Origin: an uncultured bacterium
GTDB taxonomy: Bacteria > Patescibacteriota > Dojkabacteria > SC72
Assembly: GCA_903906305.1 (NCBI GenBank)
Contig: CAIVJR010000003.1
Span: 1-56,874 of the forward strand
Direction: 5' to 3'
DNA length: 56,874 bases
The position numbers were made by a program, and so were the translations under genes. Below, one piece after another: positions 3,558-55,299 of this stretch. The notes under the pieces were generated by a model. That model saw only the letters and a list, made by a program, of their open reading frames with translations. It made no database searches and was not told where the DNA came from. Position 1 is the stretch's first letter, and every line of letters begins with the position of its first letter.

Positions 3558-4250
3558 CTATTTATGTGCCTTTCTTACATGCAGTAACTCTGCAAAGGTT
3601 TTGAAATATGAAGCTGTAGTCACATGGCTTTCTCCAACCTCTGTCCATTCAACCGGCATTTCCTTAATCATTAAACCATTCTTGTGTAAGAGATAAAGAA
3701 ATTCAAAATCATAACCATATCTATTGTTTTCACACATTAAAAAATATGGCTTGCATTTCTGATTAAACATTTTAAACCCACATTGAGTATCCTTAAAATT
3801 AAGGCCTAAAATTGATCTAATTAGAAGATTAGATGCGTTTCCAAATAATTTTCTTAGTGGAGAGACTTTTATATCTTCCTTACCTAATGCTCTAGAACCA
3901 ATTACACAATCATATTTATCCATCTTTTCTACAAAGTGTTCAATATATTCAATTGGTGTAGAGAAATCTGCATCTGCAATATATATGTAATCTCCATCGG
4001 CTTTGGTTATACCTTGTTTTAGGGCATATCCTTTTCCCATATTAGGGAAGTAGCTAACAATGATCACCTCGTCTTTGAATGTAGTGAGTACTTCTAGGGT
4101 TTTGTCCTTAGATCCATCATTAACAACTATGATTTCGGTTTGGATTTGGTTCTTTTTACTAAATTCTTTGAGATATGAGATCACATGAGGGAGAGTTTTT
4201 CCTATTCTATTTTCTTCATTGTAAGCAGGGATAACAATGGATATCTTCAT
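3558..4250 (-). CDS. GT2 polyprenol-phosphate hexosyltransferase (DPM1/GtrB-like)
   Basis: 230 aa. ISIVIPAYNEE N-terminus, DGSKDKT and ADADFS (DXD) motifs of family-2 glycosyltransferases. Confidence 0.8.
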   Translation of the reverse strand: MKISIVIPAYNEENRIGKTLPHVISYLKEFSKKNQIQTEIIVVNDGSKDKTLEVLTTFKDEVIIVSYFPNMGKGYALKQGITKADGDYIYIADADFSTPIEYIEHFVEKMDKYDCVIGSRALGKEDIKVSPLRKLFGNASNLLIRSILGLNFKDTQCGFKMFNQKCKPYFLMCENNRYGYDFEFLYLLHKNGLMIKEMPVEWTEVGESHVTTASYFKTFAELLHVRKAHK

Positions 4251-4257
4251 ATGGGTA

Positions 4258-4266
4258 ATGATATCA
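4258..4266 (-). promoter_or_regulatory. extended -10 (TGATATCAT) 7 nt upstream of the GT2 gene ATG
   Basis: The reverse complement of 4258-4266 reads TGATATCAT. ATG at 4250. Confidence 0.45.
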
Positions 4267-4298
4267 ATTTATGTTCGTCATTATATCAGAAATTTTTA

Positions 4299-5633
4299 TC
4301 ATATGGACCTTGCAAACATAATTCCTGTTACAGCAGCTCCCGTTATGCTTCCTGATACACCCGCTGCATCGCCAGCTACATACAAGCCTTTGATACACGT
4401 TTGCAATCCGTTATCTGTAACTATCTTTGAAGATCTAAACTTAACCTCAGGTGCATAAAGAAGGGTAGAACCTCCATTAACACCCGGCATTACCTTATCC
4501 AATATCTCTAATCCTTCTTCAATATTCTTGACTATTCGATATGGCAAAGCCATAGCTATATCTCCTGGTGTAACATCTGTTAGAGAAGGTGTTACAAATG
4601 ATTTAGAAAGTCTACTCCATGAACTCCTTCGACCACTATGCAAATCCTCAAGTGATTGCAACAAAGGTTTCCCTCCTCCAAGCGTTGAGGCTACTTCCGC
4701 AATTGATTTAGCATATGCTATGGAATTCTCAACAGGTTCAGTTAAACTTACTTCAGAAACAAATGCAAAGTTAGAATTTTTGGACTTATGATCTGATTTT
4801 GAATGACCATTTACACATATGTAACCATCATAGTTTTCGGTAGCCACTTCACCATTTGGACAGCTACAGAAGGTTCTAATAATGTCGTGGTATGTTTTGG
4901 TTCTTACCTTGTAGACTGTCTCATAAAGGATATCCGCTTGACGTTTCATTATTGGTGCTAAAAATTCAACTCTTACTCCAACCTCTACCTTGTCATACAT
5001 ATATTTAATATCATATTTGTTAGCAAGTTTTTGTAACCAGCTAGCTCGAACTCTGCCAGGAGCAAGAAGAACGATAGGGGCTTTGATTTCTTTTTTGTCT
5101 TTTGTAATTACTCCACTTATCTTTTTATCCTTAACTAAGATATCTATTACTTCTGTGTTATCTAATATCTCCACACCTTTTTTAAGAAGGTCTTTTTCCA
5201 TCTTAGCTATAACCGTAGTTAATTTGTCTGTACCTACATGCCTTGCTTTTCTTACAATTAATTCAACATCATTCTTGGTAGCTTCTTCAATGAGTTTGTC
5301 ATATTCTTCATTTTGTTTTGGGTAATATTCTGCATCTACTCCAAAATCTGTAAATATTTCATCTACATAGTCTAAGATTTTTTGATATTCGGGTTGGGAT
5401 ATGAGGTGGAAGGCTTTCTCATGTGAGAGGTATGCTGTCAGGTGTAACTTTCCATCTGAGAATGTTCCTGCTCCTCCTATACCTGACATTACTTCATTGG
5501 GTTTTCTATTCTCAATTCTATTACCCATATCTATGAGGGCAATTTTCATATCTTTGTGAGATTTGAGGAGTTCGTAACATGCGAATAGGCCAGCAGGGCC
5601 AGCACCAACTACTATTACATCGTATTTAGACAT
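4299..5633 (-). CDS. FAD-dependent oxidoreductase (COG2509-like)
   Basis: 444 aa. N-terminal Rossmann motif VIVVGAGPAGL and a GGAGTFSDGKL motif typical of this uncharacterised FAD dehydrogenase family. Confidence 0.7.
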   Translation of the reverse strand: MSKYDVIVVGAGPAGLFACYELLKSHKDMKIALIDMGNRIENRKPNEVMSGIGGAGTFSDGKLHLTAYLSHEKAFHLISQPEYQKILDYVDEIFTDFGVDAEYYPKQNEEYDKLIEEATKNDVELIVRKARHVGTDKLTTVIAKMEKDLLKKGVEILDNTEVIDILVKDKKISGVITKDKKEIKAPIVLLAPGRVRASWLQKLANKYDIKYMYDKVEVGVRVEFLAPIMKRQADILYETVYKVRTKTYHDIIRTFCSCPNGEVATENYDGYICVNGHSKSDHKSKNSNFAFVSEVSLTEPVENSIAYAKSIAEVASTLGGGKPLLQSLEDLHSGRRSSWSRLSKSFVTPSLTDVTPGDIAMALPYRIVKNIEEGLEILDKVMPGVNGGSTLLYAPEVKFRSSKIVTDNGLQTCIKGLYVAGDAAGVSGSITGAAVTGIMFARSI

Positions 5634-5779
5634 AGTGATATGTGGTTAGGTTACCTATTATTATTCCAGAAAATACCCATCATGACAACAACCGTGGAAC
5701 ACCTGCTTCACGAGATCAGATCTAGAACTGATCTAATTTAATTTTTTATTCAAAAGAATTATGCTACCATATATCCATC

Positions 5780-6409: not shown

Positions 6410-6428
6410 TATTTGATATATTAGAGAT

Positions 6429-6545
6429 ATGAATGCAACAGAGATAAATCAAAGATTACAAGAAATAAATATATTACTAACCATTATTTACAATAAGCTC
6501 CTTGATATTAAGGCACAAAGATCAATTTCAAATATATCTTCCTAA
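6429..6545 (+). CDS. 38-aa micro-protein (amphipathic helix), hypothetical
   Basis: Not in the ORF track (below the size cutoff). MNATEINQRLQEINILLTIIYNKLLDIKAQRSISNISS. Preceded by extended -10 TGATATATT (6414-6422) exactly 6 nt before the ATG, the same geometry as many genes here. Confidence 0.4.
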   Translation: MNATEINQRLQEINILLTIIYNKLLDIKAQRSISNISS

Positions 6546-6819: not shown

Positions 6820-6830
6820 TGTGGTAAAAT
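6820..6830 (+). promoter_or_regulatory. extended -10 (TGTGGTAAAAT) 6 nt upstream of the iscS ATG
   Basis: TRTG-n-TAAAAT. ATG at 6837. Confidence 0.55.
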
Positions 6831-6836
6831 ATATAT

Positions 6837-8018
6837 ATGAAAAATATATACCTTGATCACGCAGCAACAACCTCTGTAAAACCAGAGGTATTAGAAACAA
6901 TGCTCCCATATTTTACTGAAAAATACGGCAACGCTTCATCAATATATTCATTAGGAAGAGAAAACAAGAAAGCAATAGATGATGCAAGAGAGAAAGTAGC
7001 AAAAGCATTAAATGCACAACCAAAAGAAATATTCTTCACAAGTGGCGGGACAGAAGCAGATAACTGGGCATTAGAAGGAATAGCATTTGCCAACCAAACT
7101 AAAGGAAAACATATCATAACTACAAATATTGAGCATCATGCAATATTGCACACTTGTAAGTTCTTAGAAAAGCAAGGTTTTGAAGTAACATATGTACCAG
7201 TAGATAACAAAGGAATAGTACACGTTGAGGATATAGAGAAAGCCATAAGGCCAGATACCATATTAATATCCATAATGTTTGCTAACAATGAGATAGGGAC
7301 AATACAACCAATTAAAGAGATAGGGGTATTAGCTAAGGAAAAAGGAATATACTTCCATACAGATGCTGTACAAGCTATCGGAAATATACCTATCGATGTA
7401 AAAGATATGAATATTGATATGCTCTCACTCTCTGGACACAAGTTCTACGGCCCTAAGGGAGTCGGAGTGCTCTACATTAGAGACGGAGTAAGAATATCTC
7501 CAATGTTACATGGTGGTGCACAGGAGCGAGGTAAGCGAGCTAGTACAGAGAATGTAGCAGGTATTGTTGGACTCGGAAAAGCCATCGAACTAGCTACAGA
7601 GAACATTGAAGAATACAACACGAAATTAATGAAAATAAGAGATAGGGCTATTAGGAAGATATTAGAAAAGATTCCATATTCAAGATTAAATGGAGAGGAA
7701 AAGAATAGATTACCAGGAAATGTAAATATTTCCTTTGAGTTCATAGAAGGAGAATCAATCCTCCTTATGCTAGACATGAAAGGTATATGTGCTTCGAGTG
7801 GATCAGCATGTACCTCTGGTTCCTTAGATCCTTCACATGTGTTACTTGCCATAGGTTTACCTCATGAGATAGCACATGGTTCTTTAAGATTAACCTTTGG
7901 AGAAGAAAATACAGATAGTGATTTAGACTATCTATTAGAGACATTACCTCCCATTATTGAAAAATTGAGAGCTATGTCCCCTTTATATGACACCTTTATT
8001 AAAAATGGAAGAATATAG
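6837..8018 (+). CDS. iscS: cysteine desulfurase (NifS/IscS type)
   Basis: 393 aa. PLP-lysine motif [12 protein letters not shown] and active-site loop SSGSACTSG. Confidence 0.9.
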
Positions 8019-9451: not shown

Positions 9452-9965
9452 TTCTCGATATATATTCAGCATTATCACGCAGAATTCCATGCAAAAGCAA
9501 TATCTTATGAAGTAGTAATAGATAGGCAGATTCTATTGGGTTATCAACAACTCCTTTATACAAACAATCCGTCTGATCCCTTCCATCATGGTATTGTCTT
9601 GTTATACTAAAATCCTTAAGTTCAGAGAAATCGTTATTACAACCTTGTTTAATGTAGAAAGCTATTTTCTTTTTCGTTTCCGAATTCTCTATGTCCGAAT
9701 TTTCAATTTTTGAACCATATGCTATGAATCCAAGTACTCGTTTTTCCTCAACGTTTATGGCTCGTATTTGTATATTTGCAAGAGAATCATCTCCCGATAT
9801 AAGACCAAGAACTCTTGCGCAGGCATTCATAGAATCTATCTCCTCAGATTCCAAATCAAATTCTGAACAAATCAATTCCTTCCCTTTGGGAATATCTAGA
9901 CTTTCAAGTATTTGAATATCATATAGCTCAGGAGCATTCTGAAGAGTAGCATCTGTTTGTTGCAT
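9441..9965 (-). CDS. hypothetical acidic cytoplasmic protein
   Basis: 174-aa ORF with no recognisable domain. A TATACT box (rc 9971-9976) lies 5 nt upstream of the ATG. Confidence 0.45.
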
Positions 9966-10104
9966 CGTATAGTATATAAGTCTAGTACAATTTATATATC
10001 AATATACCCCAACCCTATATACTTCATCAAGAGGATAATTAAAAATTCAACAATAAGTATATGGTAATATATAGATATAAGAAATAATTTGTCATTTTTT
10101 AAAC

Positions 10105-10361: not shown

Positions 10362-10754
10362 TTGAATAGAAATATCATGAATAAAAAAGTCATATTAATT
10401 TCTGTCATAGCATTCTTGTTAATTGTGATCTCAGGAATATTTGTATACCTGTATATACACAACAAAAACCTACAAACAAGCAAACAACTAACCAAAGAGA
10501 ACTTCATACTCACATACGAATATGAAGGTGATAATACATGGAGCTATACCGTCACCGAAGCAGCTTCTACCTCATGTATACATATTAAAACTGATGCCTT
10601 AGTTATGGAAAGCTTTCCAGAACAAGTCAAAGTAAGAGTACAAAAACTAGACGAACCAACTTCCGAAGTATGCTCAATAGTTCAGGAAGAATATTCTTCT
10701 TCAGGGACATTTAGTGCCAGCAGCAAAGCTACAGTATCATTAATGGTAAAATAG
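10362..10754 (+). CDS. membrane-anchored hypothetical protein
   Basis: 130 aa with an N-terminal TM helix (VILISVIAFLLIVISGIFVYLYI) followed by a soluble domain. Confidence 0.45.
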   Translation: MNRNIMNKKVILISVIAFLLIVISGIFVYLYIHNKNLQTSKQLTKENFILTYEYEGDNTWSYTVTEAASTSCIHIKTDALVMESFPEQVKVRVQKLDEPTSEVCSIVQEEYSSSGTFSASSKATVSLMVK

Positions 10755-10757
10755 TCT

Positions 10758-12134
10758 ATGCTAACCAAATCAGATTTTCTAGTCTTCATGGATGCACCAA
10801 TGCATCTATGGGCATTGAAACACAACCAATACAACAAGTCTCTTTCAATGTATGATCAACACCTCATCAAGCAAGGATATGAGGTAGAAAAACTCGCAAG
10901 GGAATATGTTAAAAAATATATCTCCAATGATTGTGAATATCAAAAAATATATCAAACTGATGATCTCTACAGTAGAGCAGACATTGTAGTAGGAAATGAT
11001 ATATATGAGGTAAAGAGCGTAACAGAGATAGAGAAAGAGCAAGAATATGATGTCCTTTTCCAATATTATACTGCCTCAAATACCCTAGAAAAGAACATTA
11101 ACGATATATATATAATATATCTAAACAAAGACTATGTTAAAGAAGTGGAAATAGATTTGGAACAGCTCTTCGTAGTCAAGAAGATGACGGATTTTGCAAA
11201 AGAAAATTACAACAAAGTGCAAGGATTGATAGCAGAGGCATTACTAGTAACCAATAAAGAAGAAAATAATGGATTAATGGAATGTTACAAACCCAAGGAT
11301 TGCCCATGTAAAGAACTATGCTTTCCAACACTTCCAGAATATTCAATCTATGATGTAGGAATGATCGGGGAGAAGAAAGTAAGAATGCTCAGAGATATGG
11401 AGATATTGGATATGAGGAGTATTCCAGAAAATTTCAAGCTTAGCTCAAAACAACAGATTCAAGTAAAGGCTACAAAGGAGAACAGAGCAATCATTGATAC
11501 ATATGCAGTAAAAAGTGATATAGAAGGATTAATTTTTCCTTTGTATTTCTTAGATTACGAAACCTATTCCTGGGCTGTACCAAAATACAATGGCCACAAA
11601 CCATATCAAAATGTGGTTTTTCAATATTCACTACATGTAAAGAGAACACCGAATTCAGAATTAGAACATTATGAATATCTCTCTACTTCGCAGGATGACC
11701 CTATGAAGTCTGTTCCTACAGAATTGCAAAAGGTCATAGGGAAGACGGGGAGTATATTAACATGGAATAAGTCATTTGAAATGGGTAGAAACAAAGAGAT
11801 GGGAGAAATATATCCCGAATATGAGGATCTTTTCATAATGGTAAACAGTAGGGTAAAGGATCTCGGAGATATTTTCAGTAAGCAGATGTATGTAGACCCG
11901 AAGTTTAAGGGTAGTTGGAGTATTAAGAAGGTTCTTCCCGTTCTATGTCCTGATTTAACATATCACGATATGGAGGTATCAAATGGTACAGAGGCTATGG
12001 TTGTTTGGGAAGAGATTGTGTATGGGAATAAATCGGATGAAGAAAAGAATATTATGAAAGAGAACTTACTTAGGTATTGTGAACTAGATACCTATGCTAT
12101 GATTAGAATATGGGAAGCTATGAAGTTAATTTAA
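10758..12134 (+). CDS. DUF2779 protein (PD-(D/E)XK nuclease N-domain plus RNase-H-like exonuclease C-domain)
   Basis: 458 aa. D..EVK motif (RADIVVGNDIYEVKS). YFLDYET .. FQYSLH .. YCELDTYAM motifs are characteristic of DUF2779. Confidence 0.6.
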   Translation: MLTKSDFLVFMDAPMHLWALKHNQYNKSLSMYDQHLIKQGYEVEKLAREYVKKYISNDCEYQKIYQTDDLYSRADIVVGNDIYEVKSVTEIEKEQEYDVLFQYYTASNTLEKNINDIYIIYLNKDYVKEVEIDLEQLFVVKKMTDFAKENYNKVQGLIAEALLVTNKEENNGLMECYKPKDCPCKELCFPTLPEYSIYDVGMIGEKKVRMLRDMEILDMRSIPENFKLSSKQQIQVKATKENRAIIDTYAVKSDIEGLIFPLYFLDYETYSWAVPKYNGHKPYQNVVFQYSLHVKRTPNSELEHYEYLSTSQDDPMKSVPTELQKVIGKTGSILTWNKSFEMGRNKEMGEIYPEYEDLFIMVNSRVKDLGDIFSKQMYVDPKFKGSWSIKKVLPVLCPDLTYHDMEVSNGTEAMVVWEEIVYGNKSDEEKNIMKENLLRYCELDTYAMIRIWEAMKLI

Positions 12135-12145: not shown

Positions 12146-13507
12146 ATGAAATTAATACAAGAATTTAAGAATGAATATAACAATATTACATATAGATTAT
12201 ATGAATTAGATTGTGGTATTAAGTTAATACATTTAGAAAATCCTGCTACTGTTAATTTTGATTTTGTTGCAGTACATAAAGCTGGTTCTTCATATGAAGA
12301 TCAAGAAAAAGTCCCACATGGTACAGCACATTTTCTTGAACATATGCTATTCAATCCCAATACAACATTTAAGAGCATTGATGAAATCTTGCAGTTTGAA
12401 GAAGGCAATCTTACCAGACCAGCATTATATCCAAACGGAGGTACAAGCCGAAAATTTCTTTATCTTCAATGCACCGCACAAGCAAAATCTACCTATCGTG
12501 TTTTAGAAAGAATAGAGAGCTTAATAGAATTTCCATCTAATATTCTTGATAAATATTTTCCAAAAGAAAAAAACGTTGTTTCTGCAGAAAGAAGTAATCA
12601 ACCTAAACTTGAGAATTATTCATCTATCCAACTATTACAATTCATTGAGGGAGATTTCCTACCTGAGTTTGCTTACGCTGTTGTTGGAGAACTAACAGAT
12701 ATAAAGAAAATAAGTCTAAAGAATCTTGAAGAATATTTCAGAAATAGATTTGTTCAAGAAAATGTTATCTTTTCAATTCAATCTGAAGAGAAACCTAGTA
12801 AGAAATTATTTGAAAAAATAGAAAATCTTGGACAAAAGTATCCGAAGGAAAAATCCTCAATCTTTCGAACAGTAAAGATGAAAAACCAGAAAGATCTCGG
12901 ATATTTCTTCGATGAACACACGACAGGTACTACAATAGAATTCTTGCATTTTGATGATTATGAAGGAGCTATTAATTACAAAAGAGAAGCAGAAACCAAT
13001 CTACTACATAAATTAATTCATAAACTTGGATTTGATATCTTAAGAGAGAAGAAAGGATTAATATATGATTTGAGTGCTTCCATTTCTATGAGTTATTCCG
13101 CAAGTAACGCAGTTGATGGTATCAACTTTGTTACTGAGAATAAAAAAATCAAAGAAATGCTTGAAGCAATCGATAAACTCATATATAAGGATTTGGAACA
13201 TTTTATCAAATCCGAAGATGGAACACGTTGGCTTGAACACGTACTAAGCAAGTTTATCTATCCTACAACAATTTCATACAATAGCGATTTAGCAAATAGC
13301 ATTGCCACTACATATTTCGAAACTGGAGAGCTGTATAACTATAATAAATATGTAGAAGAAGCAAAGAAAATAACAAAGGAGAGAATAATTGAACTTATCC
13401 ATGAATTTCAAAATATTCCTCCACATATCTGGGTAGAAAGTAACTTACCTAAAAAAGAAGTAGAGAAGGTTGTAAAAGAATCAACCCTTTGGAAAAGATT
13501 TAAATAG
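12146..13507 (+). CDS. M16 (pitrilysin/insulinase) family zinc peptidase
   Basis: 453 aa with the inverted zinc motif HFLEH (HxxEH) near the N-terminus. Confidence 0.7.
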   Translation: MKLIQEFKNEYNNITYRLYELDCGIKLIHLENPATVNFDFVAVHKAGSSYEDQEKVPHGTAHFLEHMLFNPNTTFKSIDEILQFEEGNLTRPALYPNGGTSRKFLYLQCTAQAKSTYRVLERIESLIEFPSNILDKYFPKEKNVVSAERSNQPKLENYSSIQLLQFIEGDFLPEFAYAVVGELTDIKKISLKNLEEYFRNRFVQENVIFSIQSEEKPSKKLFEKIENLGQKYPKEKSSIFRTVKMKNQKDLGYFFDEHTTGTTIEFLHFDDYEGAINYKREAETNLLHKLIHKLGFDILREKKGLIYDLSASISMSYSASNAVDGINFVTENKKIKEMLEAIDKLIYKDLEHFIKSEDGTRWLEHVLSKFIYPTTISYNSDLANSIATTYFETGELYNYNKYVEEAKKITKERIIELIHEFQNIPPHIWVESNLPKKEVEKVVKESTLWKRFK

Positions 13508-15002
13508 CACCAACCCTTTCAATATATTCATCCCTAAAATACCCAAAGTATTCCTCTGGCATTAATATCACCTTCTCAATACCCAATTCTCTAACAAAGT
13601 GAGGCTCATGACTTACCAATATAATAGTACCCTTGTATTCCTTAAGTGCTTGAAGCAATATATTCTGAGAATCAGGATCCAAATAAGTAGTAGGTTCATC
13701 TAACAACAACACATTATATCCACCTGCAAATAGTTTGGCTAAAGCTAATCTAGTCTTTTCACCACCAGATAGGGTAGACACCTTCTGATTAACCATATCG
13801 CCAGCAATTAGAAATCCGCCTAAGAATTTTCGTTTGTCCAACAATCCCCATTCCAATTTCTCAACATTCTCCCAAACAGTCATATTAAAATCTAAATCCT
13901 CATTCTCTTGAGAATAGTATCCAACCGTAGTATTAAAACCCCATTTGTATGTACCGCTATCCTGTTTTAATCTCCCTGCCAATATCTTAAGCAAAGTAGT
14001 CTTACCTGCCCCATTCTTACCAATAATGGCAAGACGATCATGTCTTTGAACATTGCATGAGACATCCTTTAACACTTCCTTACCTTTGATATATGCCTTT
14101 GAAATATTGTCCATCTCCAACACAAGCTTGTTACTTTGTGATGGGACAGGAATATTCAAATGCATCTTCTTACCCTTCATAACCTTAATCTGCAATTCTT
14201 TAACATTCTCCTTTAACTCCTTAGCTTGTTCAAATTTTCTTGCGGCACGTTTCTTTTCCTTAATACTCTTTCTACCAGATAGTCCTTGGGCTAATTCAAA
14301 TACTTTTTCAGCTTTCTTTTCCTCACTAACCAACTGTTTAACAAGGAATTCATCTCTTAATGCTTTAACCTTTAAAAATTGTTCATAGTTACCTCTGTAA
14401 ACCTCTACGTCATGTATCTTTTCATTTAAAAACCATATCTTAGTTATCCCTTTATTCATCAATCTCAAATCATGTGAGACCACTAGAACAGCCTTAGGGT
14501 ATGTAACTAAGTATCTCATTAACCACTCTGCAGAAGGAATATCTAAGAAGTTAGTAGGCTCATCAAGTATTAGAAGATCCGCTTTCTCCATCAATATCTT
14601 TATGATCTCTACCTTAATCTTCTGACCACCAGAAAGTTCTCCTAGTTTACTATCACAATCCTTGTCATCCATTTTTAGGTTATTCAAAAATTTCTTTATC
14701 TCCCATTCCTCAACATCAATACTTTTTTCGATTATTAGGTATTCACCAATGGTTAGATTAGGATGATTATTTATATCCATCTCTTTATGTGTCTCTTGTG
14801 CTAGGTATGACATAGTTCCTTTAAAGGATACTTCTCCTAGATCTGGTTCTTCTAATTTACCAATGACTTTTAATATGGTTGATTTGCCAGCGCCATTAAC
14901 TCCAACAAGTCCAACCTTCTCTTCCTCACCCATGGTTAGGGATATATTCTTTAATATTTGTTTGTTACCTCTACTTAAAGAGATGTTATTTATATTTAAC
15001 AT
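13500..15002 (-). CDS. ABC-F family ATPase (translation/ribosome-associated type)
   Basis: 500 aa. Two NBDs (GVNGAGKST/LSGGQ and GKNGAGKTT/LSGGE) joined by a K/E-rich linker, with no TM domain. Confidence 0.85.
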   Translation of the reverse strand: MLNINNISLSRGNKQILKNISLTMGEEEKVGLVGVNGAGKSTILKVIGKLEEPDLGEVSFKGTMSYLAQETHKEMDINNHPNLTIGEYLIIEKSIDVEEWEIKKFLNNLKMDDKDCDSKLGELSGGQKIKVEIIKILMEKADLLILDEPTNFLDIPSAEWLMRYLVTYPKAVLVVSHDLRLMNKGITKIWFLNEKIHDVEVYRGNYEQFLKVKALRDEFLVKQLVSEEKKAEKVFELAQGLSGRKSIKEKKRAARKFEQAKELKENVKELQIKVMKGKKMHLNIPVPSQSNKLVLEMDNISKAYIKGKEVLKDVSCNVQRHDRLAIIGKNGAGKTTLLKILAGRLKQDSGTYKWGFNTTVGYYSQENEDLDFNMTVWENVEKLEWGLLDKRKFLGGFLIAGDMVNQKVSTLSGGEKTRLALAKLFAGGYNVLLLDEPTTYLDPDSQNILLQALKEYKGTIILVSHEPHFVRELGIEKVILMPEEYFGYFRDEYIERVGAI

Positions 15003-15009
15003 GAGAGCT

Positions 15010-15018
15010 ATTATATCA
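15010..15018 (-). promoter_or_regulatory. extended -10 (TGATATAAT) 7 nt upstream of the ABC-F ATG
   Basis: The reverse complement reads TGATATAAT. ATG at 15002. Confidence 0.55.
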
Positions 15019-15039: not shown

Positions 15040-15068
15040 TTGATGGATATATAGACCTGTAGTATAAT
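15040..15068 (+). promoter_or_regulatory. sigma70-like promoter TTGATG-17 nt-TATAAT
   Basis: -35 at 15040-15045 and -10 at 15063-15068, upstream of the SD-led ORF at 15106. Confidence 0.5.
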
Positions 15069-15105
15069 AGCCGGTTCGTCAAATCGCTCATTGAGGAGAA
15101 ATATT

Positions 15106-44687: not shown

Positions 44688-45394
44688 AGTTCTTTGCAAC
44701 TAATAGTTCCTACTTTACATATACAAATTGAAGATGTTTTTTTAGACTTGAAAACCTCTTGATCCCCATACAGAGTATTGTCTTCTACACATGCCCCAAG
44801 ACTTTCTAGATTTCCATTATCCGATTGATAATATATTTGGAAGTTTTCATCTAGAGCAATATCCAAGCCGGAGATCTCAAAGCTATTCAAGATCTTACAT
44901 GGTGCAACATATTTAGTTGCATCTGTATTGGTCATTATTGAAAGTTTCAAATCTTCAGAAGAGAGTTCATAGAGACCCGATTGCGTAGGAGCAATCTCAT
45001 CATTTGTACATAATGCATTTCTTTCAAAACTTACCTTCAAAACACCGTTAATATATGAAGCCGAATTTGATTCAACCTCTTCAGTAAGCAAAGCCTGGTC
45101 TGTTAAGAAATTGATATATTGATATGTGAATTTGAGGTTTTGAGATGAATATCCACTGTATGTAAGCTCATCTGTACTATCATTACACTTAATAGTTCCA
45201 TCAGCATTGCACTTACACTCATCCCGCCCATTATATGCTGGAATATCATCACCACTTCTGTAGACATTTTCTCCATATGCACAGGAGTTAAATGACAATT
45301 TTTGTTGTATCGAAAGGAACAAACCTGCCCCAGATACTATTACTAAGAATATGGTTATTATTATCAACCAGTTTCTTTGTTTTATTTTGCCCAT
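44684..45394 (-). CDS. membrane-anchored Cys-rich extracytoplasmic protein, hypothetical
   Basis: 236 aa with N-terminal TM helix WLIIITIFLVIVSGAGLFL and about 12 Cys in the ectodomain. Promoter TGTGGTAGAAT (rc 45405-45415) is upstream. Confidence 0.5.
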   Translation of the reverse strand: MGKIKQRNWLIIITIFLVIVSGAGLFLSIQQKLSFNSCAYGENVYRSGDDIPAYNGRDECKCNADGTIKCNDSTDELTYSGYSSQNLKFTYQYINFLTDQALLTEEVESNSASYINGVLKVSFERNALCTNDEIAPTQSGLYELSSEDLKLSIMTNTDATKYVAPCKILNSFEISGLDIALDENFQIYYQSDNGNLESLGACVEDNTLYGDQEVFKSKKTSSICICKVGTISCKEL

Positions 45395-45404
45395 GACGAG
45401 GAAT

Positions 45405-45415
45405 ATTCTACCACA
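45405..45415 (-). promoter_or_regulatory. extended -10 (TGTGGTAGAAT) upstream of the Cys-rich protein gene
   Basis: The reverse complement reads TGTGGTAGAAT. 10 nt before ATG 45394. Confidence 0.45.
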
Positions 45416-45470: not shown

Positions 45471-45479
45471 TGTTAAAAT
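45471..45479 (+). promoter_or_regulatory. extended -10 (TGTTAAAAT) 6 nt upstream of the tatD ATG
   Basis: ATG at 45486. Confidence 0.55.
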
Positions 45480-45485
45480 TCTTCC

Positions 45486-46361
45486 ATGCACGATTCACAC
45501 ATACATTTAAATCTAGAGCCTCTAAACAGAAACATTCCCGAGATTATAGATACCTTTGTTTCAAACGGTGGAAAGCATATCCTTACTCAATCAACTGACA
45601 ATGTTGATATCCAAGAGACATTAGATATTGCTGCTAAATACCCAGATATCATAGATGTAGCACTAGGATTACATCCAACAATATTTGAAGAAACAACAAT
45701 ATTAAAAGGAAGAAATAAAAATCTGTATGAATTCTGTAACAGATATATTAATGAGTTTGAATCTCAATTTGAAAAAAATGTTAGAAAAGTAAAAGCCGTA
45801 GGAGAGACTGGGTTAGATTACTTCCAGTTTAATCTAAATCAAAGCATATTAAGAGCTCAGCAAGAAGAGTTACAAGAAATTCAAAAGCTTTCATTTAGAA
45901 GACAGATTGCATTAGCAAGAAAGTACAACCTACCATTAAGTATACATGCTAGAGATATTCAAGGTAGAAAAGATACCGTAAGAGATGTATTAAGAATATT
46001 AGTAGAAGAAGGCAAAGGAGAAGTAAGAGGAAGCTTCCATAGCTATACTGGAGATATATCATTCATTGAAGATATATTAGCCTTAGGTTTCTATGTTGGC
46101 TTCAATGCAATCATTACATATCCAAGTGGGGAGAATGTAAGGGAGATATTAAAACAAGTACCGTTAGACAGAATACTGTTTGAAACAGATGGACCATTGT
46201 TACCACCACAATCAGTAAGAAAGGATAAAAAGATAAAGGAGAAGTTTGGACAACCTGCAGATGTAAGAGAGATAATAGAGGTAGCTGCTGAAATAAAAGG
46301 AGTATCTATGGAGAAGTTGGAATCAATTACAGATGAAAATTACAAAACACTATTCCTTTAA
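45486..46361 (+). CDS. tatD: TatD-family metal-dependent hydrolase/DNase
   Basis: 291 aa. DSHIHL N-terminus, GETGLDY, SIHARD, FETDGP. Confidence 0.8.
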   Translation: MHDSHIHLNLEPLNRNIPEIIDTFVSNGGKHILTQSTDNVDIQETLDIAAKYPDIIDVALGLHPTIFEETTILKGRNKNLYEFCNRYINEFESQFEKNVRKVKAVGETGLDYFQFNLNQSILRAQQEELQEIQKLSFRRQIALARKYNLPLSIHARDIQGRKDTVRDVLRILVEEGKGEVRGSFHSYTGDISFIEDILALGFYVGFNAIITYPSGENVREILKQVPLDRILFETDGPLLPPQSVRKDKKIKEKFGQPADVREIIEVAAEIKGVSMEKLESITDENYKTLFL

Positions 46362-47757: not shown

Positions 47758-47795
47758 GTATATACATATATAATTTACATTAGTATGATATCACA

Positions 47796-48329
47796 ATGTT
47801 AAATGGTATTACCTTAGGGATTATAATTACTTTTGTATTACTATTCCTTTGTACAATTCTTTCCATATTAGTAAATGCGTTACTTTCTCCTATGTCTAGA
47901 ACTCCTTCTAAGGTGTTGGATGAGATAGCTGATTTAATGGATCCTTCTAAAAAGGATGTATTTGTAGATTTGGGAAGCGGGGATGGTAGATTGGTATTTA
48001 AGATGTATGAGAGAGGGCATGGTAAGTGTATTGGGTATGATATATCTCCTTTAAGTATAATATGGGCAAATGTAATTAGAACATTTAGATTTCCATTACA
48101 AAAGGAAATTATATTTGATGCTCAGAATGTGTTTAAGGCTGATATTTCTAAAGCTACAATGGTATATTGTTTTTTGGATGAGAAGAGTATGGGGATATTA
48201 GGACCTAAGTTAGAGGAATTTGTTAAGAATGGTGGGGAAGTATATTCATATATGTACAATGTAGATGGTATGAAGGGTGAGAAGAAGATGGAATTGAGTA
48301 ATGGGAAGGAATTATATATTTACAAATAG
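47796..48329 (+). CDS. class I SAM-dependent methyltransferase with N-terminal TM helix
   Basis: 177 aa. TM helix, then SAM motif I VDLGSGDGRL. Confidence 0.6.
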   Translation: MLNGITLGIIITFVLLFLCTILSILVNALLSPMSRTPSKVLDEIADLMDPSKKDVFVDLGSGDGRLVFKMYERGHGKCIGYDISPLSIIWANVIRTFRFPLQKEIIFDAQNVFKADISKATMVYCFLDEKSMGILGPKLEEFVKNGGEVYSYMYNVDGMKGEKKMELSNGKELYIYK

Positions 48330-48401: not shown

Positions 48402-48737
48402 CTAGATAAGCATTCTAATGATGATAGTAATCAAAATTGCAATAAGTCCTGCGAATTCGATTATGTTCATCACTTTCCAAACAATTTCTTCCTTTGGGAT
48501 GTAAAAAATATCTGTGATATTAAATACAAAAGCAACTACGACACCACCAAGGTTAATAAAAGGATCGAGCCCTTGTAGGCAAGACACAATTAGACCTGTC
48601 ATACTTATTAGATTGAAGACAAGTTGTCTTCTGTTCATAGCATCCTTAAAGAAAGCCAATTCAAATATGTATACCAGGGTTATTCCTAAAATAGCATTCG
48701 TTATGATATTTGCTTCCGAAATTATTTGAGCGAACAT
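48402..48737 (-). CDS. small polytopic membrane protein, hypothetical
   Basis: 111 aa with 3-4 TM helices. Canonical SD AAGGAG lies 6 nt upstream of the ATG. Confidence 0.5.
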   Translation of the reverse strand: MFAQIISEANIITNAILGITLVYIFELAFFKDAMNRRQLVFNLISMTGLIVSCLQGLDPFINLGGVVVAFVFNITDIFYIPKEEIVWKVMNIIEFAGLIAILITIIIRMLI

Positions 48738-49008
48738 GTTATTCTCCTTTTTTGATTCCCTCTTGTGAAGGGTTAATGTTTAACTTACATTAATACAACA
48801 AGACTTCCACATATATAGTGAAAATCATATTGTATTAAGCAAGCTAAACAGGAGATACCTAGATCCTTTTTAATGAGCAGATATATCTATAAACAAAGTT
48901 AATAGATAGACCTATATTATACTATAGGGTGGAGTTTAATTCAATTCTTAAGAAAATCTATGAAGGAGTACAATATGCATGAAAGCGGTATGTACTCCTT
49001 CAGGAGGA

Positions 49009-49565: not shown

Positions 49566-49574
49566 TGGTATAAT
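49566..49574 (+). promoter_or_regulatory. extended -10 (TGGTATAAT) 6 nt upstream of the rarA ATG
   Basis: ATG at 49581. Confidence 0.6.
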
Positions 49575-49580
49575 ACACAT

Positions 49581-50789
49581 ATGCCAGCATACGAACCATT
49601 AGCATCAAAATACAGGCCTAAAACATTAGAAACCCTCATAGGTCAAGAACACCTTGTAGGAGACAATGGACCCATTAGGAAGTTCATAGAATCAGGCAAC
49701 ATACCCTCAATGATTTTCTGGGGGCCACCAGGCACAGGAAAAACCACATTAGCATATATCATCTCCCTTAACCTCTACTATGATTTCCACAAACTCCAAG
49801 CAGTATCAGCAGGAAAAGAACAATTAAGAAAGATCATAAAGGTAGCATTAAATAACCAACAATATGGTAAAAAAACAATCCTGTTTTTAGATGAAATACA
49901 TAGATGGAATAAAGCTCAACAAGATGCATTACTACCATATGTAGAGAAGGGGATAATCATACTCATAGGAGCTACAACAGAGAACCCATCATTTACCGTA
50001 AACAGTGCATTACTTTCTAGAACTAAAGTATTTGTATTCAAACAACCAACGGAAGAAGATATATCAAAGCTCATAAAGAGGATTGCAAAACTAGAATATC
50101 CAGATATTGGTATAGGGAAGAAGGAATTGGAAATAATGGGGAATCTCTCCAATGGAGATATACGTTCAGCATTAAACATATTGGAAATGGCTACCACATT
50201 AGCAACATCTGCACAAAAGCAAGATGAGAAAGCTAAGGTAACTACAGAACTTCTAATGTCTGCCATACAGAAACCCGTCTACTATGACAAGACTGGAGAG
50301 GAGCATTACAACATCATATCTGCAATACATAAGTCCATGAGATCATCTAATCCTGATGCTGCATGTTACTGGGTAGGTAGAATGTTAAGTGGGGGAGAAG
50401 ATCCATTATATATTGCTCGAAGACTTCTAAGGTTCTCTAGTGAGGATGTAGGAAACGCAGATCCTAATGCATTGGTACTCGCAAATAGCGTATATGAAGC
50501 ATGCCAAAAATTGGGTATGCCAGAGTGTGAGACCTTACTTATGCAGTTAGCTATATACCTTTCTAAGGCTCCTAAGGACAATACCGCTTACAAGGTTGAA
50601 TTAGAGGTAAAGAAAGATATTGAGATATATGGGAATCTTCCTGTGCCTTTAAATATACGTAATGCTGAAACAAAATTAATGAAGGATATTGGATATGGTA
50701 AGGGGTATGAATATGATCATGATTTAGCTAACAAGAAATCAGATCAACAATGTTTACCAGATAGGTTGAAGAACAAGAAATATCTCTAA
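49581..50789 (+). CDS. rarA: replication-associated recombination protein RarA/MgsA (AAA+ ATPase)
   Basis: LASKYRPKTL, Walker A GPPGTGKTT, Walker B LFLDEIHR. Start re-called to ATG 49581, exactly 6 nt after extended -10 TGGTATAAT (49566-49574). The track ORF opens at 49536. Confidence 0.85.
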   Translation: MPAYEPLASKYRPKTLETLIGQEHLVGDNGPIRKFIESGNIPSMIFWGPPGTGKTTLAYIISLNLYYDFHKLQAVSAGKEQLRKIIKVALNNQQYGKKTILFLDEIHRWNKAQQDALLPYVEKGIIILIGATTENPSFTVNSALLSRTKVFVFKQPTEEDISKLIKRIAKLEYPDIGIGKKELEIMGNLSNGDIRSALNILEMATTLATSAQKQDEKAKVTTELLMSAIQKPVYYDKTGEEHYNIISAIHKSMRSSNPDAACYWVGRMLSGGEDPLYIARRLLRFSSEDVGNADPNALVLANSVYEACQKLGMPECETLLMQLAIYLSKAPKDNTAYKVELEVKKDIEIYGNLPVPLNIRNAETKLMKDIGYGKGYEYDHDLANKKSDQQCLPDRLKNKKYL

Positions 50790-51307
50790 ATAGATCGATC
50801 AACTCTGTACTTAATCCTTGGTCTAATTTTCTCATCTCTTGTAAGTCTTCGCATAAAGATATTGTTTTCTATTTCAAATAATCTTCCTATAGCTGAATCG
50901 AGTCTTTCACTTCGCCCTTTTTCTTCACCACGTTTTACAATCAAAAGAGGCATTGATGCTCGTTTAAAGTCTTTTGAATATGGTATAAAAAGAGTGATTT
51001 CACCGAAATCTCCAAAAGCACATTTAGTCTGTAGTATTACTGGATATATAGGATCATGAGAATTTTTAACATCTGCAGAAATAGTAATTGGCAACTGCAC
51101 ATCTTCAACTCCAATTTCTAATAAAACATCGTGTAGCGCTTCAATTTCAAAATCATATATCTGTCCATCAAATATACCTTCTAATGTTTCTGATGGGTCA
51201 TCATACAAAACAATATCCTGATATTGAGATCTAGATAATGTATCCGCGAGTTGTGCGAATTCTTTAGTTAATTCTGTTGTGTTATTTTCTTTTGGATCTC
51301 TGTTCAT
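50786..51307 (-). CDS. hypothetical acidic protein (third gene of orphan trio)
   Basis: 173-aa ORF. Acidic N-half and basic C-tail. No domain recognised. Confidence 0.45.
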   Translation of the reverse strand: MNRDPKENNTTELTKEFAQLADTLSRSQYQDIVLYDDPSETLEGIFDGQIYDFEIEALHDVLLEIGVEDVQLPITISADVKNSHDPIYPVILQTKCAFGDFGEITLFIPYSKDFKRASMPLLIVKRGEEKGRSERLDSAIGRLFEIENNIFMRRLTRDEKIRPRIKYRVDRSI

Positions 51308-51340
51308 GGCCTATAATTATATCTCAATATCATTATATTC

Positions 51341-52406: not shown

Positions 52407-52493
52407 ATCCCATCAAGTATACATTATCATAGCCCATAATTATACTTTCCTTACCTTGTTCTAGCAATCAATTCCATATATAATAATCTCGTC

Positions 52494-53717
52494 ATGACTA
52501 CAGTAAAAACCGATCCAGAAATAATACAAAGAATATTAGAAAAAGGAGTAGAACAAATACTCCCTTCAAAAGACGCACTAAAAGAGAAATTACTCTCAGG
52601 ACAAAGATTAAACATATACCAAGGCTTTGATCCTACCGGTGAGACATTACACATAGGACACAGCGTTGGAATGAGAAAATTAGAAGATTTTAGAAAGCTA
52701 GGACACCATGTCATATTCCTCATTGGAGATTTTACCGCAAGAATAGGGGATCCTACAGACAAGGCAGCTACTAGAAAAATGCTTACAAAAGAAGATGTAG
52801 AGAACAATATGAAAAAATACATTGAGCAAGCTTCCCACATTATCGATATGAAGAATACTGAAAATCCAGTAGAAGTGATGTACAACAGCACATGGTTAGA
52901 GAAGTTAGACTTTGGAGAAATAATTAATCTAGCATCCGAATTCACAGTACAACAACTTTTAAAACGAGATATGTTCCAAAAACGATTAGAAGCTAACAAA
53001 CCAATTCATCTAAATGAATTCTTGTATCCATTAATGCAGGGGTATGACTCCGTAATGATGGATATAGATATTGAAATAGGGGGAAATGACCAACTCTTCA
53101 ATATGCTCTCCGGTAGAGATATGGTTATGAACCACCTCAAAAAAGAAAAAATTGTATTAGCTGGGAAATTACTCGAGGATCCAAATGGAGACAAGATGGG
53201 AAAGACCACTGGAAATATGATTAGGATGGATGACAAACCAGAAGATATCTATGGCAAGGTTATGACCTTTACCGATGGAATGATCCTCATAGGGTTTGAG
53301 ATATTAACGGTAGCAACATTAGAAGAGTTAGAGACATACAAGAAGAGATTAGATTCTGGAGAGAATCCAATGGTACTCAAAAAAGAGTTAGCCTTAAGAG
53401 TAACAGAAGAGATAACCTCAAAAGAAGATGCTCAGAAAGCGCAACAATACTTTCAAGAGGTGTTCCAGAACAAAGAAGACAGTGAAAAGATACAAGAAAT
53501 TAAAGTAAACAAGGCAGTATTCCAGATTGGGGAACTTTTGGTAACTGTTGGTTTTGCAGGAAGTAAATCCATTGCAAGAAGATTAGTAGATCAAGGTGCC
53601 GTAAAGATTAACAACGAAAAGATATCTGATTGGGATTGCAAGGTTGATATTGCTTCCTACCCATCACTATTACTAAAGGTAGGAAAACAGTTATGTCACA
53701 TTACAGTAAAGACATAA
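52494..53717 (+). CDS. tyrS: tyrosine--tRNA ligase
   Basis: 407 aa. HIGH motif (LHIGH), KMSKS variant KMGKT, C-terminal S4 domain. Confidence 0.9.
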   Translation: MTTVKTDPEIIQRILEKGVEQILPSKDALKEKLLSGQRLNIYQGFDPTGETLHIGHSVGMRKLEDFRKLGHHVIFLIGDFTARIGDPTDKAATRKMLTKEDVENNMKKYIEQASHIIDMKNTENPVEVMYNSTWLEKLDFGEIINLASEFTVQQLLKRDMFQKRLEANKPIHLNEFLYPLMQGYDSVMMDIDIEIGGNDQLFNMLSGRDMVMNHLKKEKIVLAGKLLEDPNGDKMGKTTGNMIRMDDKPEDIYGKVMTFTDGMILIGFEILTVATLEELETYKKRLDSGENPMVLKKELALRVTEEITSKEDAQKAQQYFQEVFQNKEDSEKIQEIKVNKAVFQIGELLVTVGFAGSKSIARRLVDQGAVKINNEKISDWDCKVDIASYPSLLLKVGKQLCHITVKT

Positions 53718-53745
53718 CTCCAGGGGAAAAAATATTTTAAATATT

Positions 53746-53767
53746 AATCCCCAACATGGGGATTTTT
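53746..53767 (+). terminator. hairpin plus T-tract after tyrS
   Basis: AATCCCC-aacat-GGGGATT followed by TTT. Ends 4 nt before the rel start codon. Confidence 0.5.
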
Positions 53768-53771
53768 AATT

Positions 53772-55175
53772 ATGGAAGAAATTGAAAAGATACAACAGAA
53801 GATATTACAAAAAAGTCCAAGAGCCTTTTCAAAAGAGATAGGCAAGGCTATGGAATATATTGAAGGTAGAGATATCGCTTTAATTAAGCATCTCTTAAAT
53901 ACTGCCTTAATTGTTGCAGAACAAGGCTTTGATGCAACTACAATCATAGCCGCAATATTACATGATGCAGAGCCAGACGAAACATTTGATGATGAGATCT
54001 TAGGTATTGTAAAAGGAGTACGACATATTGAAGCAACAACTAAGAATGAAGATACTAAAGATGAAATCATAACCAAATATATATTGAACAATGCAAAAGA
54101 TTTAAGATCTGTGATCATAAAATTAGCCAGTGTATTAGAAAAGGTTAAACATATAGAGGATTTCAAACCAGAAAAACAAAAATTGTACTTAAGACAAGCA
54201 ATAACTATATATTCGAGTATTGCAGAATATTTGGATTTAGGAAATATCAAAACAGAACTGGAAGAAAAAGTTTTTGAAATAACTTTACCTGCAGAGTACG
54301 AAGCCGTAAAACAAAGATATGAAGAGTTTGGAATAAATAATCAACTTCTTGAACAATACGAGGAACTCTTAAAAAGAAATATAAATGGTTTAGATGTAGA
54401 AATTTATGGTCGAGCAAAGAGTAAGTATAGTATATATAACAAACTCAAGAAATATGAGAAGGAATGGAGAAATCCCGATATTAAATCTATTACTGATTTA
54501 ATTGCATTCAGATGTGTAACAAAAACTTTTGAGGACTGTTTTAATGTGTTAGAAAAAGTCATGGATTCCGGTGAATTGGATACTGAACACTTCCATGATT
54601 ATATTTCTACACCTAAACCTAATGGGTACATGGCGATACACTGTTTTATTATTTTTAATAAAATTTCTCAATTAGCAATAGAAGTTCAAATTTTAACTGA
54701 TGAAATGCATAAAGCAAATACATATGGTAAAGCATCGCATATTGCATATAAGGCTAGTAAAAGCAGATATGCCAATCCTACAGACAAATATGATTGGGTC
54801 GAAGAAGTACATAACGCCATACAAAAAAATATTAAAAATCGAGATACCTATATAGATACACCAATCAATATTAACCTCTTCCAAGAAGATATTTTTGCAT
54901 TTACTCCAAAGGGAGAAATCATACCTCTCTCAAAAGGAGATACTGCATTAGATTTTGCATACAGAATACATTCACAAATTGGCAACAGTGCAGTAGGAGT
55001 TAAGATAAATGGAAAGGCTGCAGGATTAGGACAAACACTTGAAACCGGAGATATGGTAGAGATAAAAACACAAAAAGATAAGGTCCATCAGAACATGGGA
55101 GCATTACAGCATGTAAATTCTCAAAGTACCAAGGCAAGAATATTAAAAACTATTTTAAAGCATCAAAAAAATTGA
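53772..55175 (+). CDS. RelA/SpoT homologue ((p)ppGpp synthetase with HD domain and TGS domain, no ACT)
   Basis: 467 aa. HD motif ILHDAE, synthetase motifs FRCV..YISTPKPNGYMAIH..EVQILT..ASHIAYK, and a TGS domain (FTPKGEIIPL..GD..DFAY.IH). The KLADRLHN hydrolase motif is degenerate (KLASVLEK). Confidence 0.8.
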   Translation: MEEIEKIQQKILQKSPRAFSKEIGKAMEYIEGRDIALIKHLLNTALIVAEQGFDATTIIAAILHDAEPDETFDDEILGIVKGVRHIEATTKNEDTKDEIITKYILNNAKDLRSVIIKLASVLEKVKHIEDFKPEKQKLYLRQAITIYSSIAEYLDLGNIKTELEEKVFEITLPAEYEAVKQRYEEFGINNQLLEQYEELLKRNINGLDVEIYGRAKSKYSIYNKLKKYEKEWRNPDIKSITDLIAFRCVTKTFEDCFNVLEKVMDSGELDTEHFHDYISTPKPNGYMAIHCFIIFNKISQLAIEVQILTDEMHKANTYGKASHIAYKASKSRYANPTDKYDWVEEVHNAIQKNIKNRDTYIDTPININLFQEDIFAFTPKGEIIPLSKGDTALDFAYRIHSQIGNSAVGVKINGKAAGLGQTLETGDMVEIKTQKDKVHQNMGALQHVNSQSTKARILKTILKHQKN

Positions 55176-55188
55176 TAATATAGTCAAT

Positions 55189-55299
55189 ATGAAAAGAGAA
55201 ACATCTAAAAAAATTCGTAATGTTATCAATGTAGCCACAGCTATCATATTACTAGGAGGAATACTTGTACCAATTATTCTCACCCTTATTAATATATAA
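55189..55299 (+). CDS. 36-aa single-TM micro-protein
   Basis: Not in the ORF track. MKRETSKKIRNVINVATAIILLGGILVPIILTLINI. Extended -10 TGATAATAT (55173-55181) lies 7 nt upstream of the ATG. Confidence 0.4.
   Translation: MKRETSKKIRNVINVATAIILLGGILVPIILTLINI

Follow-up and report, generated by a model that had tools for sequence, protein, structure and literature searches.

The window analysed here, 56,874 nucleotides of contig CAIVJR010000003.1 (assembly GCA_903906305.1) from an uncultured, ultra-small bacterium, has a GC content of 34%. Its TypA protein is 98% identical to that of a metagenome-assembled genome (MAG) contig, 95% to that of WS6 GW2011_GWC2_36_7 and 57–87% to those of further MAGs, several of them labelled Candidatus Dojkabacteria; WS6 is another name for Dojkabacteria, which belong to the candidate phyla radiation (CPR, Patescibacteria). 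Pfam matches backed the gene names GT2 (family 2 glycosyltransferase), class-V aminotransferase, ABC-F, peptide deformylase, MraZ, TatD and RarA/MgsA, and added SecG, desulfoferrodoxin, pyruvate kinase, TyrRS, RelA/SpoT and others. Many of the genes have an extended −10 box (TGNTANNNT) or a plain −10 box a few nucleotides before the ATG, and a sequence-only reading of the window had proposed from this arrangement that leaderless mRNAs are widespread in the organism. We found the 11 main and 7 weaker instances on which it relied to be exactly as claimed in sequence, coordinates and spacer (N5–N7, where N6 denotes six nucleotides between box and ATG).

To compare gene starts with other ATGs, we used a crude, motif-blind gene call that takes the first ATG of each long open reading frame (ORF), which gave 63–64 genes in the window, together with 109 related loci, of which 29 surround typA and come from genomes and 80 surround rarA and come from metagenomes. 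In the window TGNTANNNT stood at N5–8 before 8 of 64 called gene-start ATGs and before 16 of 2227 other ATGs (odds ratio 19.7, p=1.2e-7), and in the relatives L004–L029, which amount to about 1 Mb of related Dojkabacteria DNA, before 51 of 416 starts and 113 of 13003 other ATGs (odds ratio 15.9, p=2e-37). The motif is thus 16–20 times commoner at gene starts, and internal ATGs, in-frame and off-frame alike, carried it at 0–0.5% per position. When a good −10 box was called with a simple score, 19 of 63 window genes had one in the N5–8 bin, as against 1–10 in the other 4-nt bins out to N44. Shuffling that preserves dinucleotides gave a divided answer. The strict form TGNTANAAT at N6–7 before ATG occurs 6 times in the window against 1.1±1.0 expected, a count that 0 of 200 shuffles reached, while the loose TGNTANNNT at the same spacing occurs 17 times against 9.4±2.9, an excess of just about 2-fold. 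Whole-window shuffles are a weak-to-moderate test in an AT-rich genome, and the signal is the co-location of the motif with gene starts rather than its raw count. The distant low-GC relatives recovered through RarA (L084–L109) showed weak enrichment at N5–8 (33 of 203, vs about 18 in other bins), and we therefore confine the claim to Dojkabacteria.

The position of the box is sharply defined. Across 948 unique gene-start contexts, drawn from the window and related loci (79 Dojkabacteria-like sources in all), TGNTANNNT was found 24 times at N5, 61 at N6, 22 at N7 and 11 at N8, then 12–17 times at each spacing across N9–12 and 0–5 times at most farther spacings, apart from a broad hump at N27–33 that represents ordinary leadered promoters. 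The peak does not depend on gene calls: behind 630 unique strong extended −10 sites, located with gene calls ignored, an ATG lay exactly at N6 in 74 cases over a baseline of about 10, a roughly 7-fold enrichment, and neither GTG nor TTG showed a peak at N6 behind the same sites. A position-frequency matrix built on longest-ATG starts in the window alone held little information (at most 0.19 bit); the signal mixes classes and emerged only in spacer histograms and class-specific alignments. These results bear on the possibility that a genome of 34% GC simply yields TAnnnT near many ATGs. TANNNT by itself does precede about 10% of all ATGs at N5–8, and the loose pattern has the modest excess over shuffles given above; however, the N6 peak arises within the same upstream regions, the odds ratios against other ATGs are 16–20, GTG and TTG show no peak, and box and spacing are conserved gene by gene while the flanks have diverged. 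Chance is refuted by the enrichment, the spacer histogram, the ATG-only peak and the ortholog conservation, and we consider it extremely improbable.

Box and spacing were followed through orthologs, taking for each window gene the unique orthologs below 90% identity whose N-termini aligned; the genes at 4250, 6429, 9965 and 19879 were without usable orthologs and were left out of the counts. A box at N5–8 was retained in 24 of 25 orthologs of tatD and 13 of 14 of def, through mraZ, secG, the ABC ATPase, the DUF2779 gene, the cytidylate-kinase-like (cmk-like) gene and ABC-F, to 4 of 6 for the response regulator (Table 1). For rarA a strict score placed it at N5–8 in 15 of 24 and at N9–12 in 5 of 24, and GTATAAT-N5–7-ATG is present in nearly all loci at 74% identity or more, where the flanks diverge. 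The aminotransferase geometry is likewise kept (TGATAGAAT-N6-ATG in L007, TGATATAAT-N6-ATG in L011). In the alignments, which span 35–90% protein identity, flanking bases vary freely, and box and box-to-ATG spacing are retained. Window genes that lack the box also lack it in their orthologs (rsmH 0/16, PBP 0/16, mraY 0/17, the RRM protein 0/12, the gene at 28018 0/9, relA/spoT 0/6). The plain −10 cases fared unevenly: several are kept, such as those at 26768 (4/6) and 34257 (4/4), and those at 15939, 47796 and 25272 are poorly conserved or ambiguous.

A further alternative is that the boxes are real promoters and the ATGs behind them are not translation starts, the true start lying downstream on leadered mRNAs, or that transcription starts a few nucleotides off the A. 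The starts are computational calls, and typA, tyrS and the gene at 45394 have their boxes 9–12 nt from the ATG. Against this, 16 of the 18 listed ATGs have no other in-frame start codon back to the upstream stop, the N-termini of orthologs align from the first residue onward, Pfam domains set in at residues 1–5 (e.g. in GT2, aminotransferase, TatD, desulfoferrodoxin and pyruvate kinase), and the 7-fold enrichment of ATG exactly at N6 is independent of gene calls. The adjacent upstream stops and the Pfam domain positions indicate that the start codons are sound, and we regard misplaced starts as quite unlikely.

When 262 cases with a box at N5–8 were aligned on the box, the consensus T-17, T-15, G-14, r-13, TATAAT was obtained, with T-15 in 63%, G-14 in 53%, A-9 in 90% and A-8 in 79% (T-12, A-11 and T-7 follow from how the cases were selected). 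As judged from these positions, the anatomy is that of a sigma-70 extended −10 promoter, and the fuller form TGTGnTAnAAT is present at typA, iscS and the gene at 45394. We searched the same logo for a −35 box and found none, with nothing above 0.15 bit from −38 to −28, though absence from a logo is not proof that the element is dispensable. Plain −10 boxes are depleted throughout the window relative to dinucleotide shuffles (TATAAT, 70 vs 123±11; TANAAT, 267 vs 407±19), consistent with selection against spurious −10 boxes. Promoters of this genome seem to need little beyond the −10 box.

Two further features argue that the box acts in transcription. First, the base at −1 is a pyrimidine in 82% of the N5–8 class, compared with 50% of genes without a nearby box, and so the A of the ATG is flanked by Y and T, 7 bp past the box at the N6 spacer (Y-A-T). 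This matches the Y-1 R+1 Y+2 start element of Kuo et al., who report that such an element, if its centre lies 7 bp downstream of the −10 box, coincides with the start site in 93% of cases (PMC12641261). Second, the box tracks the need for a gene's own promoter and is confined to genes that lead a transcription unit: where the upstream neighbour is divergent, 35% of genes have it at N5–8 and 22% at N9–12, whereas for genes that overlap the one before them the figures are 7% and 3%. Both features speak to the alternative that the TAnnnT-rich element works in RNA as a non-Shine-Dalgarno translation signal (A/U-rich, unstructured or S1-binding, like that of Bacteroidota group B) on transcripts that start farther upstream. 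The Shine-Dalgarno (SD) sequence is hardly used in this genome, the element keeps a constant, short distance from the start codon, as a ribosome-binding site would, and CPR ribosomes are unusual (PMC9297842). Against an RNA signal stand the conserved positions, which are sigma-70 DNA contacts (T-17, T-15, G-14, T-12, A-11, T-7), the recurrence of the same motif at N9–12 and N27–33, a −1 pyrimidine that suits a transcription start element, and the 7% of overlapping internal genes as compared with 35% of promoter-needing genes; in group B genomes, internal genes have the motif before them as well (PMC6028130). We consider this alternative unlikely.

A second class of genes has its box at N9–12, and typA, with a spacer of N11, therefore belongs here and not with the N6 genes. 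The spacing TTTGTGnTAnAAT-N11-ATG is kept in 20 of 21 diverged typA orthologs, and in tyrS orthologs a −10 box lies within 12 nt of the ATG in 19 of 19 (11 at N5–8, 8 at N9–12). A G stands at −3 in 41% of the N9–12 class, compared with 10%, which suggests that initiation occurs there and leaves a leader of about 3 nt. At typA, tyrS and the gene for a 236-aa protein, TGTGnTAnAAT or TATATAAT is followed by 9–11 nt ending C-T/C-Y-G-T-C before the ATG; this spacing is conserved across relatives and resembles a class with a C-rich discriminator. The window also encodes a RelA/SpoT homolog (53772–55175, +), and given this, stringent control of these three genes is conceivable.

Taken together, leaderless transcription is, in our judgement, very probably the explanation of the box-to-ATG geometry, as the sequence-only reading had proposed; the N6 peak, its restriction to ATG, the −1 pyrimidine, the promoter anatomy, the operon-leading position and the orthologs all favour it. 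Housekeeping promoters in this genome consist of an extended −10 element (T-17 n T-15 G-14 n TATAAT) without a recognisable −35, and in roughly one in three of the genes in need of a promoter of their own the hexamer ends 5–8 nt (mode 6) short of the ATG. The polymerase would then begin transcription at the A of this codon, inside the Y-A-T element, to give an mRNA without 5′ leader or SD, which, by analogy with other bacteria, may be bound through its 5′-terminal AUG. In a second class, about a fifth of such genes, a box 9–12 nt upstream with G at −3 would give leaders of about 3 nt.

Several observations weigh against this interpretation. The key step, initiation on the A, is inferred from the geometry of the box, and the loose motif, counted over the window as a whole, exceeds dinucleotide shuffles only about 2-fold. 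Counts pooled across loci lack phylogenetic independence, but the window taken by itself and the family-level conservation table agree with them. Many boxes lie in 15–39-nt gaps behind a same-strand gene, and leadered read-through transcripts probably coexist with leaderless ones. Several −10-only cases are not conserved (17025, 0/6; desulfoferrodoxin at 15939, 1/4; 47796, 4/17). Finally, Rfam and regular-expression scans found no rRNA signature, and with it no anti-SD tail of the 16S rRNA, in the window or the 109 related loci; searching viral contigs for the 3′ motif of the 16S rRNA gave unrelated sequences only, and matches to the genes at the ends of the window did not lengthen the contig.

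Table 1. Start-proximal elements in the window. Nx is the number of nucleotides between element and start codon; "added" marks genes absent from the list of the sequence-only reading; fractions are diverged orthologs retaining the box, at N5–8 unless stated.
Element and spacing	Gene	Positions	Strand	Basis
TGATATCAT-N7-ATG	Family 2 glycosyltransferase (3558-4250)	4248-4266	-	First start in ORF; Glycos_transf_2 aligns from residue 4
TGATATATT-N6-ATG	38-aa micro-ORF (6429-6545)	6414-6431	+	Geometry alone
TGTGGTAAAAT-N6-ATG	Class-V aminotransferase, IscS/NifS-like (6837-8018)	6820-6839	+	Pfam; ORF check
TATACT-N5-ATG	174-aa protein, weak case	9963-9976	-	No Pfam match
TGGTAAAAT-N5-ATG	DUF2779 protein (10758-12134), added	10744-10760	+	Pfam; orthologs 4/4
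TGATATAAT-N7-ATG	ABC-F ATPase (13500-15002)	15000-15018	-	Pfam; orthologs 3/4
TACAAT-N5-ATG	Desulfoferrodoxin (15562-15939), weak case	15937-15950	-	Pfam; orthologs 1/4
TATATT-N7-ATG	168-aa protein, N-terminus signal-peptide-like, weak case	19866-19881	+	ORF check
TGATATCGT-N6-ATG	ABC transporter ATPase (ATG 25206)	25204-25221	-	Pfam; orthologs 6/6
TATTCT-N6-ATG	Secreted cytochrome-b5-domain protein, weak case	25260-25274	+	Few orthologs, geometry not clearly retained
TATAAT-N5-ATG	46-aa micro-ORF (26584-26724), hydrophobic stretch then acidic tail	26573-26586	+	Conserved peptide and box
TGTACAAT-N5-ATG	OmpR-type response regulator (26768-27478)	26757-26770	+	Pfam; orthologs 4/6
TGATATAAT-N6-ATG	Peptide deformylase, def (ATG 27503)	27488-27505	+	Pfam; aTGaTATAcT-N6-ATG in 13/14 orthologs
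TATAAT-N7-ATG	SecG (31030-31260), added	31258-31273	-	Pfam; orthologs 9/10
TATAAT-N6-ATG	Cytidylate-kinase-like P-loop protein (ATG 34257)	34255-34269	-	Pfam; orthologs 4/4
TGGTAAAAT-N6-ATG	mraZ, leads division/cell-wall cluster	40138-40155	+	Pfam; orthologs 9/10
TGTTAAAAT-N6-ATG	TatD-family hydrolase (ATG 45486)	45471-45488	+	Pfam; orthologs 24/25
TATGAT-N6-ATG	Methyltransferase-like protein, ambiguous	47784-47798	+	Pfam; orthologs 4/17
TGGTATAAT-N6-ATG	rarA/mgsA	49566-49583	+	Pfam; ORF check; orthologs
TATAAT-N8-ATG	173-aa protein, added	51305-51321	-	Sequence
TGATAATAT-N7-ATG	36-aa micro-ORF (55189-55299), one predicted membrane helix	55173-55191	+	Conserved peptide and box
TGTGGTAAAAT-N11-ATG	typA/bipA (ATG 17762), short-leader class	17739-17764	+	TTTGTGnTAnAAT-N11-ATG in 20/21 orthologs
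TGTGGTAGAAT-N10-ATG	236-aa protein, ends CCTCGTC-ATG, short-leader class	45392-45413	-	Orthologs 5/7 at N9-12
TATATAAT-N9-ATG	Tyrosyl-tRNA synthetase, tyrS, ends CTCGTC-ATG, short-leader class	52479-52496	+	19 orthologs
TGTAGTATAAT promoter, ~30-nt leader, GAGGAG-N7-GTG	Gene starting at 15106, SD contrast	15058-15108	+	AGGAG kept in L002, L004 and L007 orthologs
AGGAG-N6-ATG	111-aa membrane protein (48402-48737), SD contrast	48735-48748	-	AAAGGAGAA conserved in ~10 orthologous loci
ACTGCC-N4-ATG	Operon-internal gene 28018, after def	28008-28020	+	Motif 28008-28013
ACTGC-N5-ATG	135-aa protein (ATG 31676)	31674-31686	-	Motif 31682-31686
CCTGCC-N2-ATG	Pyruvate kinase (ATG 31773)	31765-31775	+	Pfam; motif 31765-31770
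ACTGCC-N4-ATG	100-aa gene (ATG 41486), ftsL position between rsmH and PBP gene	41476-41488	+	Motif 41476-41481

The box-to-ATG rule also had consequences for annotation. Ortholog alignments supported the starts that the sequence-only reading had re-called. They placed the start of rarA at ATG 49581, not GTG 49536, and that of typA at ATG 17762, not GTG 17741, though the typA spacer is N11 and not N6. For the ABC ATPase the start is 25206, not 25212; 6 of 6 diverged orthologs begin at the matching residue. The longest-ORF calls for these three genes were thus wrong. Two of three proposed micro-ORFs proved to be conserved small membrane proteins with their own box at N5–8, below the usual length cut-offs. 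The 46-aa peptide at 26584 is kept with a close box (TGTATAAT or TATATAAT at N5; N7 in L009 and L026) in L001, L002, L004, L006, L007, L009 and L026, and the 36-aa peptide at 55189 has counterparts of 31–100% identity in 19 related loci, nearly all with a box at N5–8, and is annotated behind relA/spoT in other assemblies. The third, the 38-aa ORF at 6429, had no conserved homolog among the related loci examined and is unsupported beyond its geometry. Gene finders that expect an SD mis-place starts in such genomes, and the rule corrects them.

The claim that the box genes have no SD held for every listed gene (GGAG, GAGG and AGGAG are absent upstream of all of them), but the genome does use a canonical SD on a few leadered genes: AGGAG or GGAGG stands at N5–8 in 18 of the 948 contexts (about 2%), restricted to a few families. 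Two canonical SD-led genes were found in the window (SD at 48744–48748, −, and 15093–15098, +), and the one clear non-ATG start in the window, GTG 15106, is SD-led. AAAGGAGAA is conserved before the fast-evolving 111-aa protein even as the protein sequence itself diverges. Conserved AGGAG sites of this kind suggest that the anti-SD is intact, and Tsurumaki et al. describe anti-SD loss in a subgroup of Parcubacteria only (PMC9297842). Most leadered or operon-internal genes have no recognisable ribosome-binding site.

A different signal came out of a de novo k-mer screen, in which ACTGCC was the top enriched hexamer at −20 to −1 (21-fold; TATAAT, 13-fold). The form (A)ACTG[C/T]C is seen in 43 unique contexts, which represent about seven gene families, and ends there 2–5 nt ahead of the ATG. 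Of 277 genomic copies, 35 lie within 8 nt of a called start, as against 0–4 for control hexamers. It is conserved in orthologs and occurs in L005–L078. The genes that carry it lie mostly in 15–39-nt same-strand gaps and are therefore leadered or operon-internal. Had ACTGCC been a start-site element, a −10 box would be expected at a fixed distance from it, and no consistent upstream box was found. ACTG[C/T]C is not complementary to the canonical anti-SD, and comparison by eye of ACUGCC with the canonical 3′ end of the E. coli 16S rRNA, not that of this lineage, found no good complementarity. A non-SD ribosome-binding site or a processing site is possible. The response regulator at 26768 has its box (TGTACAAT-N5-ATG) in the window and close relatives, and ACTGTC-N3-ATG in a sister clade (L009, L010, L026); judging from such orthologs, the two signals appear interchangeable over evolutionary time.

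More tentatively, and with considerable doubt, we suggest that start selection follows a three-way regime, in which about half of the transcription units would have 0–5-nt leaders, about 2% of genes would keep a canonical SD, and (A)ACUG[C/U]C, 2–5 nt ahead of the AUG of leadered or internal genes, would be a lineage-specific non-SD signal for ribosome recruitment or mRNA processing. Under such a regime the last element might base-pair with a non-canonical stretch of 16S rRNA, or it might be the mark of a cleavage event yielding a near-leaderless 5′ end.

Some of the sites have surroundings of their own. The DUF2779 promoter sits inside the 3′ end of the upstream gene. Upstream of mraZ (40117–40146, +) there are three GTGG repeats with a 10-nt period (40117, 40127, 40137), conserved in relatives, the last of which overlaps the extended −10 box; the repeats resemble MraZ operator repeats and would permit autorepression of a leaderless mraZ promoter. 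The cmk-like gene (ATG 34257) and the divergent ftsW (ATG 34289) share a 31-nt gap (34258–34288) with overlapping back-to-back boxes at 34264–34269 (−) and 34271–34276 (+), also conserved in relatives. The case at 47796 is ambiguous because a conserved TGATATCA palindrome serves the divergent truB promoter too. Between tyrS and relA we found neither promoter box nor SD, and a terminator-like hairpin with a T-run (atccccaacatggggattttt; about 53745–53771, +), conserved in close relatives, ends 4 nt before the relA/spoT ATG at 53772. At the gene for the RRM-domain RNA-binding protein (22632–22940, −), about 40 nt upstream (22941–22985) are almost invariant across 19 relatives (tGGTaTAGCGAATnTAATTT...TATAAATA-ATG), far more conserved than other upstream regions, and may be a regulatory leader.

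Parts of this arrangement have counterparts elsewhere. Extended −10 (TGn) promoters and the Gram-positive −16 TRTG region have a TG upstream of TATAAT and a weak or absent −35. The Dojkabacteria boxes, with T-17, T-15 and G-14 next to TATAAT, are no different as promoters; what is distinctive is their placement relative to the start codon. In the leaderless transcriptome of M. tuberculosis (Cortes et al. 2013), a TANNNT box reportedly lies about 6–7 nt before the start codon, and many genes are said to be leaderless. Mycobacterial leaderless mRNAs use GTG as well as ATG, unlike the arrangement described here, in which ATG alone is enriched at N6 and the sole clear GTG start in the window is SD-led.

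In the genomes that GeneMarkS-2 places in group C, a Pribnow box lies 6–8 nt from the start of operon-leading genes, and 25–50% of operons are predicted to be leaderless (40% in M. tuberculosis); genomes of this group are frequent in Actinobacteria and Deinococcus-Thermus (PMC6028130). Dojkabacteria match group C in every feature that sequence can test, with a box near the start of about 35% of obligate operon heads and a further 22% with very short leaders. They differ in being a CPR/Patescibacteria lineage, which is not named in PMC6028130, in having an AT-rich genome and an extended −10 (TGn) without a −35, and in their remaining genes, which are SD-led in group C and here have an SD at about 2% of genes. 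Bacteroidota group B (PMC6028130) shares the very low SD usage and the A/T-rich stretch before the start, but its motif precedes internal genes and cannot be a promoter, whereas the motif here avoids internal genes and has promoter anatomy.

The leaderless mechanism is already known from Actinobacteria and Deinococcus; for CPR, Patescibacteria, Saccharibacteria or Dojkabacteria, full-text literature searches found no paper claiming leaderless mRNAs. The ribosomes of CPR bacteria are reduced, and hardly any of these bacteria have been cultured. A CPR lineage that leans on leaderless or near-leaderless mRNAs, and hardly on the SD, would add a deep-branching group to the leaderless-rich bacteria, and bears on whether leaderless initiation is ancestral or has been derived repeatedly in small genomes.

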